DNA from: Shigella phage ShigP1
Reading direction: 5' to 3' (one strand)
Sequence record: PQ818763
Length of the DNA stretch: 64,000 nt
Both the position numbers and the translations under genes were made by a program. The notes below the pieces were generated by a model that made no database searches, had not been told where the DNA came from, and was given only the letters and a program-made list of their open reading frames with translations. Below, one piece after another: positions 2,852 to 63,269 of this stretch (its first letter is position 1; each line of letters starts with the position of its first letter).

Positions 2852-3102
2852 TTAGAATCCTTAATAACGTTAGCTTCAACCTTAACAGGAATAACAGAGA
2901 TGCCCTCAACGGGGCCACTTAAGTGTCCATCTTCCAGTCTGACACACACGACTCGATCTCGTGCAACTTCTACCCAATTAGTAGATGCCGCAGTACAGAC
3001 CATATGAATTGGACCGTTCTCTTCCAGCCGGAAGGTATCGCCCTTCTTCAGAGTGTGGAGTTTCACAGTCTTGATAGTTTTGTTCAATTCGTTAACTTTC
3101 AT
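2848..3102 (-). CDS. small protein, paralog family 1
   Basis: ORF track; LKKGDTFRL motif. Confidence 0.5.
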   Translation of the reverse strand: MKVNELNKTIKTVKLHTLKKGDTFRLEENGPIHMVCTAASTNWVEVARDRVVCVRLEDGHLSGPVEGISVIPVKVEANVIKDSK

Positions 3103-3110
3103 ATTGATTC

Positions 3111-3422
3111 CTATTTAAGTTTGAGGCTAATGTTAAGGTGCATACATGCTCTGTTCTGTACAGCAGCATAACTTCTACCGAGCATGTCAGCCATTCTCTG
3201 AATAGACATGAACCCAGCATTACGGATAAGGAACTGGTCTTCTTCTTCAGACCATTTAACTCGGATTGAAGCTCTTGATATTCCGAATTTAGTACAAGCT
3301 GTGTTAACTGCATTCTCCGTTACATTCATAATCTGAGCAACTTCTTGAACCGAGTACTCTTTGATTAGTCTCCGAAGATTTTCAATCTGCATCGGAGTCC
3401 ATATAGTTCTTCGTGCTTTCAT
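3111..3422 (-). CDS. putative DNA-binding protein with two Myb/SANT-like helix-turn-helix repeats
   Basis: Two repeats of W-x(2)-E-x(2)-L ... hydrophobic helix (WTPMQIENLRRL...; WSEEEDQFLIRN...MADMLGRSYAAVQNR). Confidence 0.45.
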   Translation of the reverse strand: MKARRTIWTPMQIENLRRLIKEYSVQEVAQIMNVTENAVNTACTKFGISRASIRVKWSEEEDQFLIRNAGFMSIQRMADMLGRSYAAVQNRACMHLNISLKLK

Positions 3423-3450
3423 ACATCCTCCAATTAGCTATTATTCAATT

Positions 3451-3596
3451 TGGTTACAGGTGTAGGATTCGAACCTACGCTCGGACTCCCTAGCCATCAC
3501 CAAAGGAATGCATCCAATGGGCATACGGTCATTCGACCACGGGCGACTGCTTTACCGTAGACTCTGCATTACTGAGTCCCATAAGCTATACCTGTA
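3451..3596 (-). ncRNA. tRNA-like stable RNA (about 146 nt), non-canonical
   Basis: 3' end is a canonical T-arm GTAGG-TTCGAAT-CCTAC plus acceptor ACCTGTA-A-CCA; the complementary TACAGGT lies 146 nt upstream; internal region does not fold as a standard tRNA. Confidence 0.3.
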
Positions 3597-4727: not shown

Positions 4728-4925
4728 TTAATATACCAAACCATGTAAAAGAAACACCCTCTTTGTAAGCTCTGCTTTAGCTCTGTAATAAGCCTTAGAA
4801 CCTAACAGGCGGCTCTTAACAAAGAACTTAATGTCATTGCTAACATCTTGTATTAAACGCTCCTGTACAGCTTCTGAGGAGCTATTAATTGAATCAATTA
4901 ACACCTTTGTGGATGTGTAATTCAT
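4728..4925 (-). CDS. hypothetical protein (65 aa)
   Basis: ORF track only. Confidence 0.4.
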   Translation of the reverse strand: MNYTSTKVLIDSINSSSEAVQERLIQDVSNDIKFFVKSRLLGSKAYYRAKAELTKRVFLLHGLVY

Positions 4926-4926
4926 A

Positions 4927-5226
4927 TCACCACTCCTTACCGGTTGTTGTTACAGAGCCACCACACCACAACGCTGTATCAATCACAACATTGTCTGGCG
5001 TAGACTTCTCTTCGTTGATAGAAGGGTTAGCATTAGAACAGGTTGCTCCGTTCCATCGCATATCAATTTCACCAGAAGGAATCTTCTCACCCTTATACCA
5101 GCGAGAAACACAAACACCTTCCACTGCTACTGCACACCATCCATCAGGACGGCTCTGTACGCAGCCTGTAAGGGCTATGCAGACAAGGAAGATACAGATT
5201 AAGGATATTACACCACCCCAACTCAT
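4927..5226 (-). CDS. putative lipoprotein (Cys-rich)
   Basis: N-terminal hydrophobic signal ending in lipobox-like LTGC; mature part Cys-rich. Confidence 0.5.
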   Translation of the reverse strand: MSWGGVISLICIFLVCIALTGCVQSRPDGWCAVAVEGVCVSRWYKGEKIPSGEIDMRWNGATCSNANPSINEEKSTPDNVVIDTALWCGGSVTTTGKEW

Positions 5227-46587: not shown

Positions 46588-46631
46588 TAAAAGAAAAGCC
46601 CTCAAGGAGAAATCCAAGAGGGCTTTATTAT

Positions 46632-46997
46632 TTAACGTCCCCAATCTTTATTGGTAAACGTTTTTAGTCGGTGACAGTTCGCACAAAGTGTTTGAAGATT
46701 TTCTTCTCTATTATCTTTGTGATTACCGTTTATGTGATCTACATCTAATTGACAAGTGTGTTTAGGGACGAAACCACACAACTCGCACACTTCTTTCTTA
46801 AAGTCTACGTATGGCGATTTATATCGTCTAGTACGTTCTCTGTGTGCATCCATATTCTCGTACTCTCTTTTATTGCAAGGAGAGCACAAAGGTGCAAACT
46901 TTCCACCACCTTTTGATTTCTGAGGGTTCTTGTTGCACAAAACACAAAGACCACGAACATTAGATGGCTCTGTTTTTCTAAACCTCCATGTTCCCAT
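46632..46997 (-). CDS. HNH endonuclease
   Basis: CxxC ... DVDHINGNHKDN ... LQTLCANCH motif. Confidence 0.7.
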   Translation of the reverse strand: MGTWRFRKTEPSNVRGLCVLCNKNPQKSKGGGKFAPLCSPCNKREYENMDAHRERTRRYKSPYVDFKKEVCELCGFVPKHTCQLDVDHINGNHKDNREENLQTLCANCHRLKTFTNKDWGR

Positions 46998-47053
46998 TAA
47001 TCCTCCTTGAAGGGGCTTTATTTGTTTCTATATGCTAGAATCCATCAAATTCA

Positions 47054-47314
47054 TCATACATCCCAATTTTCTTCTTCGAAGTCAATCATATAGACCTCCC
47101 AATCATCTGCAAATAAATCACCCTGAGATGGAATCCATCCGGGCTGAATAATACCTTGAGCGTTCTTTAAGACCAAATATGGGGCAAAACGGTATTGACC
47201 TACAGTATCAACTTTATCACCTACTTTAAAAATGAACTGGTTTGCACCATTCCAACCAGAGCGGGTAATCTTTTTCCCTTCTTTTACTTTCTCAAGTGCT
47301 AAACTAAAATCCAT
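47054..47314 (-). CDS. DUF2829-family small protein (Tad2-family-like candidate)
   Basis: ALEKVKEGKKITRSGWNG ... WIPSQGDLFADDWEV resembles the DUF2829 pattern as recalled. Confidence 0.45.
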   Translation of the reverse strand: MDFSLALEKVKEGKKITRSGWNGANQFIFKVGDKVDTVGQYRFAPYLVLKNAQGIIQPGWIPSQGDLFADDWEVYMIDFEEENWDV

Positions 47315-47322
47315 TTGTTCTC

Positions 47323-47550
47323 CTAGATTAAATCATAATACTTAATAATATCAGAGAGTTTGAACTCTCGAATCTCATCCTTCTCTACATCAATCGCTGT
47401 CATAATCCAACAAGGTTTGCCACCGTTATGAAAACGGGAGCTAGCAACGGAGGTTCGGAGTGGAATAACGGACCGGTCAGCGATCTCACCTCTCCAATTG
47501 CGATAGCGAAAGCGAAGCACTTGTTGCGTAGATTTTTGATCATCACTCAT
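47323..47550 (-). CDS. hypothetical protein (75 aa)
   Basis: Track ORF trimmed to ATG 47548-47550, which overlaps the upstream stop by 8 nt. Confidence 0.4.
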   Translation of the reverse strand: MSDDQKSTQQVLRFRYRNWRGEIADRSVIPLRTSVASSRFHNGGKPCWIMTAIDVEKDEIREFKLSDIIKYYDLI

Positions 47551-47944
47551 TTCCTTTTTTGAATTGTTTTCTTGCATCATTTTCCATCTTAGTTTTAATC
47601 TTATGACAAGGGTCTTTACACAGAACCTGAAAACCTTCTTTCTCACATAGAGCACGAGAGATGATTTCATCCCAAGTTGCTTCATGGTCAAGAGGAACTA
47701 TAGGCTCTATGTGGTCAATAGCCATATCCTTTACAGGGTGGTCAGAACCACACATGGCACACTTGAAGTGCATTGCCAGTCTACCTGTCTTTGGATTAAT
47801 CTTCTGCTCTGTCTTGGCGTCTGCTAGTGCATCGAACATGGGCTTCCACTTTCTAGTCAGAGAACGAATCCCGGACTTGATGAAAGAGTTGTAACGAGCT
47901 TCAGTCCACATTCCACTACAGCGAGTCTTCTCAGACTTCGCCAT
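47543..47944 (-). CDS. HNH endonuclease
   Basis: CAMCG ... AIDHIEPI ... LC..CHK motif. Confidence 0.6.
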   Translation of the reverse strand: MAKSEKTRCSGMWTEARYNSFIKSGIRSLTRKWKPMFDALADAKTEQKINPKTGRLAMHFKCAMCGSDHPVKDMAIDHIEPIVPLDHEATWDEIISRALCEKEGFQVLCKDPCHKIKTKMENDARKQFKKGNE

Positions 47945-48943: not shown

Positions 48944-49470
48944 TTATTCTCCTAACAGCTTACGGATTTCATTGCGGAAGTTATCATACTCTTCAGGGTA
49001 TTCAAACCCACACTCAAGAAGGGCGTAGTGAACAACCTTCAACAAATCCTGAACCTTATTCTTATCTTTGTGTCGATAAGCGTATTTGATCATATTGGTT
49101 TGTTGGAAGTTCAACTGAGGGTTTGCATGGTAAAACTCAACAGGCTGAATGATTTTAGATTCAGGGTTATAGTGTGCACCCCCAACCATAGTGTCTAAAG
49201 CTGGACTTCTTTTGCTGGTTTGTTCAGTTGTAGGCTTAAAACTGACTACAGGAACAGAGGAATAAATTGGATACTCTTCACCTACTGGCGGCTTTACTAT
49301 CAACCTTTTCATTGCATACCGAATTTCTGTATCAGCAGAACACGAAGAGATTTCTTCAACAGATTTACGATAGCTATCAATAACTGCACGTAACATAGAA
49401 ATCGTTCTGGTCTTATCTCTTAATTTGTGACACAGATCAGCAATCTCTTCTTCCATAAGGTTAAACTTAT

Positions 49471-49480
<10 letters not shown>
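48944..49480 (-). CDS. DUF3310-like protein
   Basis: C-terminal GGAHYNPESKIIQPVEFYHANPQLNFQQTNMIKYAYRHKDKNKVQDLLKVVHYAL matches the DUF3310 pattern as recalled. Confidence 0.4.
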
Positions 49481-60052: not shown

Positions 60053-60709
60053 TTAACTCTCCAAAGTTTTCTTCAGAGCTGCCCACGAGATTGGGTAGAG
60101 TTTAGCCATCTCTTCATCTAGAGATTTAGCAAACACTCGAACTTCATATTGAGCGTGAGAGGAGAGTCGCTGACGACACAACTCAAACCAGCCGTACAAA
60201 GAACCGGTCCACACCCACTCAGTGATCATCCCCTGAGGAAGAACAAATCGAGCTTGCTCTGGTGCAATAAATTCAATCAACTTGTCATATGCTGCTAGAG
60301 AAGCTTCATATGAATCGTTAATCAGCATTAATGCTTCAGCTCGCTCTCCGTCGATGAGTTGAACCCCTGAACCTGCATGGAGGTCCGAAGGTCTCGCAAA
60401 AATCTCTTTAGGGATGAAGACTTCAACTGCTCCATCTTTATACCGCCGGGACATTTCGTTCCACGAGAATCCAACCTGATGCTTCTGTAGTTGACGAGCG
60501 ATTGCAATTGGAGCCTTACAACGAAAGGACACTTGTGGATGACGGAACGGAGTGCAGTGTTTCTCTCTAGCCAAGAAGTTAATCAGCCGAGTATCACGAT
60601 CATTCAAATCACCCTCTCGTACAACACCAAAAGAAACTCTTGCAGCATTAACAACAGTTTTATCACTGCCCATAGCTTCAATCAATGTTGCTTGCAATTG
60701 TTCATTCAT
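60053..60709 (-). CDS. thyX: flavin-dependent thymidylate synthase (ThyX)
   Basis: ThyX signature RHxxVSF...SxNEMSRRY. Confidence 0.75.
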   Translation of the reverse strand: MNEQLQATLIEAMGSDKTVVNAARVSFGVVREGDLNDRDTRLINFLAREKHCTPFRHPQVSFRCKAPIAIARQLQKHQVGFSWNEMSRRYKDGAVEVFIPKEIFARPSDLHAGSGVQLIDGERAEALMLINDSYEASLAAYDKLIEFIAPEQARFVLPQGMITEWVWTGSLYGWFELCRQRLSSHAQYEVRVFAKSLDEEMAKLYPISWAALKKTLES

Positions 60710-61181
60710 ACTTCAACTTCTCCTTGTTATAAGCAATCTCTGCTTCTTCTGGAGTATGGAAAGTTCCTAAATGCTTAGTCTTTCCGTTAACTCCGATGAT
60801 AGCTCTGAATTTTGTACCACTAGCCGTCTCTCTGATGTAAACACCCATTGGGAGTTTTCCAGCTTTTCCGGCTCTGTTGTATTGTTTTCTGTTATGACAG
60901 TTTGTAGATGGGTCAACATCTCTTAGGTTTTTAAGAGAGTCATCCAGTTTAATCTGGTTGATGTGATCAATCTCAAACTCAGGCATCTTTCCATAAGAGA
61001 AAAACCAAGCTAATCGACATGCTCTGTAAGATTTCCCTTCATAATAGATGTACCTGTAGCCTAATGTTGAGATACACCCAGCAATATTCCCTGATACTCT
61101 CCGACCTTTAGTGTTCTTCCACCTAAAGATTCCAGTATCAGGGTCATATGCTAGGTCTTCTTTTATCTTATCAGTTAACAC
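60702..61181 (-). CDS. HNH homing endonuclease with C-terminal AP2 DNA-binding domain
   Basis: EIDHINQIKLDDSLKNLR...CHN (HNH_3-like) and GVYIRETASGTKFRAIIGVNGKTKHLGTFHTPEEA (AP2-like); free-standing between the thioredoxin and thyX genes. Confidence 0.65.
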   Translation of the reverse strand: MLTDKIKEDLAYDPDTGIFRWKNTKGRRVSGNIAGCISTLGYRYIYYEGKSYRACRLAWFFSYGKMPEFEIDHINQIKLDDSLKNLRDVDPSTNCHNRKQYNRAGKAGKLPMGVYIRETASGTKFRAIIGVNGKTKHLGTFHTPEEAEIAYNKEKLKYE

Positions 61182-61446
61182 CTAAAGCTGTATCCAAAAA
61201 TGCTTTCAGGTTTGCTTCGGTTTGCATACCAGAGAGGCTATAGTGTGCACCACTGTTACGGTTAGGTACAACGAAAGCAGGGATGCTACGAACCCCGTAC
61301 TTAACAGCTTGTTCACGACCATCACCTTCAAGGATGTTAATCTCTTCCACTTCTACATCAAACTCCTTAACAACCTTCTCAAAGGTAGGAGCCATTGCTT
61401 TACATGGAGCACACTGATCGCTATAAAACTTAATTACTTTAGACAT
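61171..61446 (-). CDS. thioredoxin-like protein
   Basis: CAPC active site and cis-Pro motif SIPAFVV; 91 aa. Confidence 0.6.
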   Translation of the reverse strand: MSKVIKFYSDQCAPCKAMAPTFEKVVKEFDVEVEEINILEGDGREQAVKYGVRSIPAFVVPNRNSGAHYSLSGMQTEANLKAFLDTALGVN

Positions 61447-62653: not shown

Positions 62654-62863
62654 TCAGTAGTAAATTACTTTAGACATAAAAGAACCAGTGTTAGGGTCTT
62701 CATACCAGCGATGTATGTCAGCGCTTTTTACTATTGTGCCCAGAGTCTTCAACTGTTTCTTAGCAATACGAGCCTCTTTGCGAGTGTCAAACAATTTGAT
62801 GTTATCTTTTCTCATGTGTTGCTCAAGATCCCAAACAACATGAATAGCCCACATCTTTTTCAT
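62654..62863 (-). CDS. small protein, paralog triplet 3 (C-terminal Y-Y)
   Basis: Basic, about 67 aa, ends VIYY; tandem with two similar ORFs. Confidence 0.45.
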   Translation of the reverse strand: MKKMWAIHVVWDLEQHMRKDNIKLFDTRKEARIAKKQLKTLGTIVKSADIHRWYEDPNTGSFMSKVIYY

Positions 62864-63072
62864 TAGTAATGTACCTTTCCGCTGATATAAACACGACCAG
62901 AAGAATACTCCTTGGCCTTATGGATGCTGATACTATTAACCACGTCACCAGTAAGCATAGTCTTTTTAAAATCTCGAGCTTGTTGACGAGTAGGGAGTGC
63001 AGTCATAGTCATACCACCTGATGCCCACTTAATCTTCGCTAACCAGAATTTTCTCATAGTGATTGGTCTCAT
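62863..63072 (-). CDS. small protein, paralog triplet 3
   Basis: About 69 aa, ends KVHY; overlapping start and stop. Confidence 0.45.
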   Translation of the reverse strand: MRPITMRKFWLAKIKWASGGMTMTALPTRQQARDFKKTMLTGDVVNSISIHKAKEYSSGRVYISGKVHY

Positions 63073-63269
63073 TAGTAATAAACCTTACTGTTGACACAAA
63101 AAGCACCTTCACTATTCACGATAGCTTTTCCTAGTGTAACCTTATTAAGTCTAAAAGTAGACTTGTATTGATTTTTGACCCTACGTGCGTGCTCTCGAGT
63201 CTTAACAAAATCTACAGCTACTAACTCTCCAGTCGTGTTATCATGTACACGAACAATCCACTTTTTCAT
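63072..63269 (-). CDS. small protein, paralog triplet 3
   Basis: About 65 aa, ends KVYY; overlapping start and stop. Confidence 0.45.
   Translation of the reverse strand: MKKWIVRVHDNTTGELVAVDFVKTREHARRVKNQYKSTFRLNKVTLGKAIVNSEGAFCVNSKVYY

Follow-up and report, generated by a model that had tools for sequence, protein, structure and literature searches.

The window analysed here, 64,000 nucleotides of Shigella phage ShigP1 (sequence record PQ818763), reads as DNA of a Kuravirus-like E. coli podophage. Its 58–64 kb part matches 98 phage records with identities of up to 96–98%, nearly all of them Escherichia phages of the subfamily Gordonclarkvirinae (Kuravirus SU10, NJ01, phiEco32 and relatives); TH06, Ptacy1532 and PGN6866 are the closest relatives, and none of the 98 records is identical to the window. 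Three open reading frames (ORFs) for HNH proteins exist as the first-pass annotation had described them, at 60702–61181 (HNH-1), 46632–46997 (HNH-2) and 47543–47944 (HNH-3). The first of these lies between a thymidylate synthase gene and a thioredoxin gene:

60053–60709, minus strand: thyX (flavin-dependent thymidylate synthase), uninterrupted (Pfam Thy1, E=2.7e-43)
60702–61181, minus strand: HNH-1, predicted free-standing HNH_3 + AP2 endonuclease gene of lineage A (159 aa, GTG start)
61171–61446, minus strand: thioredoxin gene, trx (Pfam Thioredoxin)

As had been noted at first pass, HNH-1 overlaps both neighbours by a few nucleotides, 8 nt with thyX and 11 nt with trx. These neighbours are full-length ORFs, the Pfam matches covering the whole Thy1 profile and most of the thioredoxin profile, and HNH-1 is free-standing, with no intron or intein and with both adjacent genes intact. 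Its final codons (AAC AAG GAG AAG TTG AAG TATGA) hold the Shine-Dalgarno sequence (AAGGAG) and the start codon of thyX. A scan for promoters and terminators around HNH-1 gave no signal above shuffled expectation, so the gene is apparently expressed from the operon.

The HNH-1 protein

The protein is made up of two predicted parts, encoded as follows:

60918–61022, minus strand: HNH_3 nuclease motif core (DH...N...N), residues 54–88 (Pfam; invariant alignment columns)
60705–60854, minus strand: AP2-type DNA-binding domain, residues ~110–159

The nuclease domain is N-terminal and of the HNH_3-type beta-beta-alpha-metal kind, with its catalytic residues intact; across 42 aligned homologues D72, H73 and N85 never vary, and N94 and N97 hardly do. 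Since Pfam did not detect AP2 when searched with HNH-1, even with the isolated C-terminus at E<=10, this domain was tested through homologues and a structural model. Precomputed matches to PF00847 and PF13392 are present in about a third of the 120 HNH-1 homologues listed, and in the 42-sequence alignment, which was enriched for proteins with both of these families, 35 members have an AP2 match, located at the region aligned to HNH-1 residues ~110–159. The AlphaFold model of HNH-1 (pLDDT 90.8) has three strands and a helix there. Homologues and confident model together confirm the predicted C-terminal AP2 domain, and with the direct Pfam match to HNH_3 they bear out the two-domain architecture proposed earlier. 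Existing labels reflect one part or the other, being 'HNH homing endonuclease' in Ptacy1532 and 'AP2/ERF domain-containing protein' in UniRef for the EK010 homologue. Values of dN/dS are 0.04–0.06 within lineage A and 0.10–0.15 between lineages A and A', and in these comparisons the gene is under strong purifying selection.

Distribution of HNH-AP2 genes at the trx–thyX junction

DNA of HNH-1 is present in 12 of about 98 related records, each time adjoining thyX and lying between trx and thyX. Six of these records carry lineage A at 92–98% identity (TH06, Ptacy1532, PGN6866, pEC-N1203-2Af.1 and, twice, EP335) and six carry lineage A' at 71% DNA identity (ECBP2 twice, EK010 twice, E20-1 and Bas87). 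The lineages other than A, with their amino-acid identity to the window protein, are:

Lineage A': EK010 group, 70%
Lineage A'': metagenomic contig with the same dcd-ferritin-trx-HNH-thyX order, 59%
Lineage B: Bas86, PAS59, O18-011, XT32, XT18, SU7 and SDYTW1 (9 records), 41%
Lineage C: TH38, YW01, FH3, ES17, myPSH2311 and TH34 (7 records), 39%

Altogether an HNH-AP2 gene of some lineage occupies the junction in 28 of about 98 records. It is missing there in about 70% of close relatives, which grow without it, and lineage A is carried by only about 7% of kuraviruses. In most relatives thyX and trx are either adjacent with a 15-nt spacer, as at the empty sites of SU10 and MN03, or separated by a small ORF of ~200 nt (NJ01 type, 20 records).

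A member of the same family is found elsewhere in phiEco32, where phi32_31 (locus 3056–3508) encodes a 150-aa HNH_3 + AP2 protein between the HNH-3 homologue and a 59-aa ORF, apparently marking a second homing site for HNH-AP2 genes within the group. In the annotations of Bas93 and Bas89, too, two HNH genes are listed at the phi32_31 position.

A foreign thyX 5' tract linked to HNH-1

Next to HNH-1 the thyX gene changes character:

60485–60709, minus strand: thyX codons 1–75, foreign allele of 225 nt linked to HNH-1 (putative co-conversion tract)
60365–60484, minus strand: perfectly conserved thyX block, encoding the ThyX signature KHQVGFSWNEMSRRY and the residues that follow (proposed left crossover point)

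The multiple alignment from thyX to trx took in 11 genomes. Over the 3' two-thirds of thyX (60053–60484) the window is ~99% identical to HNH-less kuraviruses, with 0–2 mismatches per 30 nt; at 60484/60485 this switches abruptly to 7–11 mismatches per 30 nt (against SU10, MN03, NJ01 and TH38), and the 5' 225 nt of the gene are ~30% divergent from HNH-less kuraviruses. On the other side of HNH-1, trx differs from HNH-less alleles only in its last ~8 codons (61171–61193, boundary at 61194), with 10 mismatches in the first 30 nt and then 0–4 per 30 nt. The 225-nt tract is found at >=89% identity only in the six lineage-A records, about 100 others being at <=76%, and its linkage to lineage-A HNH-1 is perfect.

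Between the window and SU10, 41 of the 65 codons that encode the same amino acid differ within the tract, as against 3 of 100 in the rest of thyX (p=3e-18), and the tract figure is also above the genus-level divergence of the backbone (26/71, p=0.003). Nei-Gojobori pS values of 0.88–0.96 in the tract prompted us to consider excess synonymous divergence, that is, selection for recoding. This was rejected: a codon-usage null model gave 38.5 differing codons expected against the 41/65 observed (P=0.30), and the tract is therefore saturated at synonymous sites, not over-saturated. No lineage-A tract lacking the HNH gene (an 'empty cognate site') was found in phage records, and an IMG/VR scan with a 26-mer from the tract gave only unrelated thyX genes with a common patch of 28–45 nt. 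Exact copies of the 26-mer, AAAGAAACTCTTGCAGCATTAACAAC (60629–60654, encoding VVNAARVSF of ThyX), are present in 13 viral contigs of IMG/VR that are otherwise unrelated.

The conserved block at whose edge the tract ends forms identical runs of 120 nt with SU10 and TH38 and of 117 nt with EP335, a phage of another genus. Synonymous differences in thyX codons 76–109 amount to 1/32 (EP335) and 4/30 (EK010, TH34), compared with 35–41% in the rest of thyX (Fisher p=3e-4 for EP335, 0.03 for EK010 and 0.006 for TH34). In Bas86 the block is saturated at synonymous sites (16/28), so its conservation elsewhere is not imposed by the protein; it could reflect recent gene conversion or a function at the nucleotide level. 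The block is identical between genera whose backbones differ by 15–25%.

These data also bear on whether HNH-1 might be a domesticated regulator, with an AP2 domain that would control transcription, for instance of the thyX operon, by binding to DNA of the phage or the host, and an HNH domain that would be vestigial. Although homing endonucleases have on repeated occasions been the source of co-opted AP2 modules, as discussed in PMC10448857, and purifying selection on HNH-1 would suit such a role, the five nuclease residues listed above are invariant or nearly so across the 42 homologues, the gene is dispensed with by most close relatives, and travel with a recoded flanking tract is not expected of a regulator. 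We consider this explanation very improbable.

The same chimera in other backgrounds and lineages

The first-pass annotation had pointed to presence or absence among related genomes as the comparison to make for HNH-1; its outcome bore out the prediction, and besides the sporadic presence and the foreign thyX tract it revealed cross-genus identity above that of the backbone. EP335 belongs to Nieuwekanaalvirus, and its backbone is 73–86% identical to the window, whereas HNH-1 is 92% identical between the two and thyX codons 1–40 are ~95% identical. When EP335 is set against its HNH-less congener Bas89, there are 5–11 mismatches per 30 nt over thyX codons 1–80 and ~0 through the 3' two-thirds of the gene and into the downstream flank. 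The EP335/Bas89 pair appears to represent the same thyX chimera as that in Kuravirus, arisen independently in another genus.

Other lineages have left comparable traces. For lineage C in a Kuravirus background (TH38 versus SU10) the tract is ~165 nt, with 0 mismatches in the remaining thyX and in 300 nt beyond, and for lineage B (XT32 versus SU10) ~500 nt of thyX, close to Bas86, seem to have been brought in. The tracts of lineages A, B and C all start at the HNH/thyX junction, and on the trx side the tract is <=30 nt in all three. The pattern is that of horizontal transfer of HNH-1 with co-conversion of flanking sequence, and on these comparisons a small selfish nuclease gene has probably carried the first third of thyX between phage genera.

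The flanking genes of the window are no closer to HNH-plus than to HNH-minus phages (dcd is 100% identical to MN03; phoH is 97.7% identical to SU10 versus 93–96% to HNH-plus phages), and monophyly of the HNH-plus kuraviruses was not seen in these genes, a result that cannot separate homing from general recombination. Lineage-A copies diverge by 1–4%, similar to the background divergence, and so do not point to a very recent sweep. The thyX 5' allele of HNH-less phages is itself nearly the same in different genera, SU10 and Bas89 differing by 0–3 mismatches per 30 nt over codons 1–70 and by 3–6 in the rest, so the cassette was apparently exchanged in both directions. This two-way exchange counts against endonuclease activity as the sole driving force, with a possible contribution from ordinary recombination between the conserved flanks.

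Taken further, HNH-1 and the thyX 5' tract might be a passive cassette, one of several alternative modules swapped by ordinary homologous recombination that uses the conserved thyX block on one side and the conserved trx 3' region on the other. The nuclease would then not drive its own spread and would perhaps be kept for another task, such as cutting the DNA of competitor phages. Five HNH-AP2 lineages at exactly one junction, with a sixth member elsewhere in phiEco32, fit site-specific elements better than such a cassette; the conversion tracts, moreover, all begin at the HNH junction and in three lineages extend far more into thyX than into trx, and the architecture of HNH-1 is that of known homing endonucleases. 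We hold the passive cassette to be unlikely on these grounds, even though it is favoured by the trans-genus HNH-less allele, by breakpoints that coincide with blocks of perfect homology, by HNH-independent module swaps nearby (a Tad2-like ORF, DUF3310 versus dNMP kinase, small ORFs) and by the strong purifying selection, which suggests a long-term function.

HNH-1 as a probable homing endonuclease

It is likely, in our judgement, that HNH-1 is a free-standing HNH-AP2 homing endonuclease, active now or recently, since sporadic presence at a fixed site, intact domains, cross-genus transfer and asymmetric tracts starting from the gene are the comparative hallmarks of free-standing homing endonuclease genes. 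In a mixed infection, the AP2 domain would bind a site in or near the 5' third of thyX in a relative lacking HNH-1, and the I-HmuI-like HNH domain would then nick or cut at the bound site. Recombinational repair from the HNH-plus genome would copy HNH-1 together with thyX codons 1–75 and the last few trx codons, the crossovers resolving in the nearest perfect homology, which is the 117–120-nt block in thyX and, towards trx, a short conserved segment close to the 3' end of that gene. HNH-1 sits seamlessly in the operon, overlapping both neighbours and supplying the ribosome-binding site of thyX. The carrier is presumed to be immune through the full synonymous recoding of its thyX 5' tract. We infer cleavage by HNH-1, its position and carrier immunity from these comparisons. 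The asymmetry of the tracts towards thyX suggests a cut or nick in the 5' third of that gene; as the tract ends precisely where the one long stretch of perfect homology starts, its boundary is no certain guide to the cut site.

A more ambitious reading, which we regard as doubtful, is that the thyX 5' end is a multi-allelic conflict locus, with at least five competing HNH-AP2 specificities, shielded alleles, a resistant HNH-less allele and endonucleases acting as weapons. If so, complete synonymous recoding would be the means by which each HNH-AP2 lineage shields the thyX allele it carries, and the prevalent HNH-less form would be a resistant allele that had spread across genera. The endonucleases would then serve mainly as weapons in phage-phage competition (marker exclusion) and not be simple parasites, which would explain strong purifying selection despite their low frequency.

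Relation to known systems

The HNH-AP2 architecture has been described as a homing-endonuclease family (PMC10448857; Magnani et al. 2004, as cited there), and phage homing endonuclease genes are reported to lie at the edges of recombinant tracts (PMC10448857). HNH-1 shares with the HNH-AP2 and ICP1 'IPA-HNH' homing endonuclease genes (Barth et al. 2023) an N-terminal HNH_3-type nuclease and a C-terminal AP2 domain, and like 'IPA-HNH' it is small, free-standing and phage-encoded, adjoins a gene that is essential or serves nucleotide metabolism, and lies where a recombinant tract has its boundary. The 'IPA-HNH' proteins of vibriophage ICP1 are too diverged for Pfam HNH_3, whereas HNH-1 matches this profile directly and it is its AP2 domain that falls below detection. 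I-HmuI, the HNH nicking enzyme of Bacillus phage SPO1 (PDB 1u3e), is intron-encoded and has C-terminal DNA-binding modules other than AP2, whereas HNH-1 is free-standing with AP2, and identity between the two is only 19%.

T4 SegF and SegG are free-standing GIY-YIG endonucleases. HNH-1 resembles them as an intergenic endonuclease gene that apparently drags along part of a neighbouring essential gene in asymmetric conversion tracts. The two cases differ in that the T4 Seg proteins, whose cleavage sites are mapped, are of the GIY-YIG type, while HNH-1 is of the HNH-AP2 type. Marker exclusion by SegF and SegG and co-conversion from a cleavage site distant from the gene are on record (Liu et al. 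2003, as cited in PMC10448857).

The family and mechanism of HNH-1 are thus already known; it is a clear but ordinary case, and the locus leaves knowledge of how such elements work unchanged. The literature searched mentioned neither the thyX/trx target site nor a series of five lineages at one site. What is new, as far as that literature goes, is the occurrence of five lineages at one site, the nested conversion tracts and the alleles shared across genera for the occupied as well as the empty site. The locus would be a well-resolved natural homing locus, documented at the sequence level, in a therapeutically used E. coli phage group, in which five related endonuclease lineages share a single insertion site, tracts of 165, 225 and ~500 nt extend into an essential nucleotide-metabolism gene, and exchange spans three genera. 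It should offer a convenient system for studying HNH-AP2 target specificity and competition between homing endonucleases.

A second HNH cassette at the convergent terminator

The first-pass annotation had read all three HNH genes as homing or mobile elements. This proved largely right for HNH-1 and is plausible for HNH-2, which lies at the following features:

46595–46626, no strand assigned: convergent (bidirectional) terminator hairpin beside HNH-2, with an annotated terminator at the homologous place in SU10
46630–47022, minus strand: HNH-2 cassette, 393 nt, comprising a strong Shine-Dalgarno sequence and a 121-aa Zn-finger HNH gene (46632–46997)

Compared with SU10 and phiEco32 the cassette is a clean insertion, directly after the convergent terminator that follows a 1488-aa structural ORF. 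It is bordered by 10-nt direct repeats, GGGCTTTATT, at 46620–46629 and 47013–47022, the one on the right corresponding to the terminator arm of the phiEco32 type. HNH-less phages have an identical left flank; on the right the window carries a different module. Only 4 of about 98 related records have HNH-2, at ~95% identity (XT32, XT18 and, twice, IMEP8). The protein matches Pfam HNH (E=8.8e-9), and a search for a targeting domain turned up nothing beyond the HNH domain and Cys motifs. We regard it as probably another mobile HNH cassette of homing type, independent of HNH-1.

Adjoining the cassette is an 86-aa Tad2-like (Thoeris anti-defence 2) ORF at 47054–47314 on the minus strand (Pfam E=1.7e-24), which takes the slot of small ORFs found in SU10, phiEco32 and IMEP8. 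Its full-length DNA relatives, at 74–78% identity, are in 8 records of other genera (TH43, NC-B, Bas86-88, EK010 and E20-1), and the Kuravirus records have none.

HNH-3 as a core gene

The third HNH gene is of a different kind:

47543–47944, minus strand: HNH-3, Zn-finger HNH nuclease of the whole phage group, apparently not mobile

All 98 related records have HNH-3, always at the same position, and in 97 of them the copy is full-length. Its identity tracks the backbone (95–98% in Kuravirus and 77–81% in other genera), and it is also conserved in more distant phages of 85–96 kb. Fixation in all 98 records marks it as a core gene and not a homing endonuclease, contrary to the first-pass reading, and it is presumably a housekeeping nuclease. 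A homing role is extremely unlikely: the HNH fold with its conserved metal and catalytic residues would permit one, and the phiEco32 HNH-AP2 gene directly beside the HNH-3 homologue makes the neighbourhood an exchange site, but universal retention at one position with backbone-like identity, in the 85–96 kb relatives as well, argues against it, as do the absence of a DNA-targeting domain and a best structural match to the phage GVE2 HNH endonuclease.

This match is to a compact enzyme (PDB 5h0o), and HNH-3 likewise has a compact Zn-finger HNH fold. The likeness extends to packaging HNH proteins of the HK97 gp74 type (Kala et al. 2014, as cited in PMC9965538), but HNH-3 adjoins a 5'-3' exonuclease gene in the leftward replication/recombination operon and not the terminase genes. 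In the Kuravirus pangenome paper the terminase subunits are placed elsewhere (gp3 and neighbours), and 'small terminase' labels attached to the HNH-3 gene are judged to be misannotations (PMC9965538). For annotators the warning is that one of these 'HNH endonucleases', HNH-3, belongs to the core genes and often goes under the wrong name of small terminase.

Other observations in the operon

Three tandem paralogous ORFs of 65–69 aa lie on the minus strand at 62654–62863, 62863–63072 and 63072–63269, with invariant W5, T27, R28, A31, R32 and C-terminal Y; Pfam gives no match for them. More copies of this family are found between the HNH/thyX genes and trx in NJ01, EK010, TH34 and XT32, the NJ01-type copy occurring in 20 records.

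Another module swap in the same operon concerns a 178-aa DUF3310 ORF (48944–49480, minus strand), in whose place SU10 and phiEco32 have an 894-nt gene for a dNMP kinase/ATP-binding protein; the window shares the DUF3310 version with IMEP8. Further genes annotated 'HNH endonuclease' occur elsewhere in the operon in Bas89 (locus 1–133 and 4787–4946) and Bas86 (locus 477–857, without a Pfam match). Such extra HNH genes of relatives lie, for example, upstream of phoH, or replace or adjoin dcd, and the region is rich in insertions of this sort.
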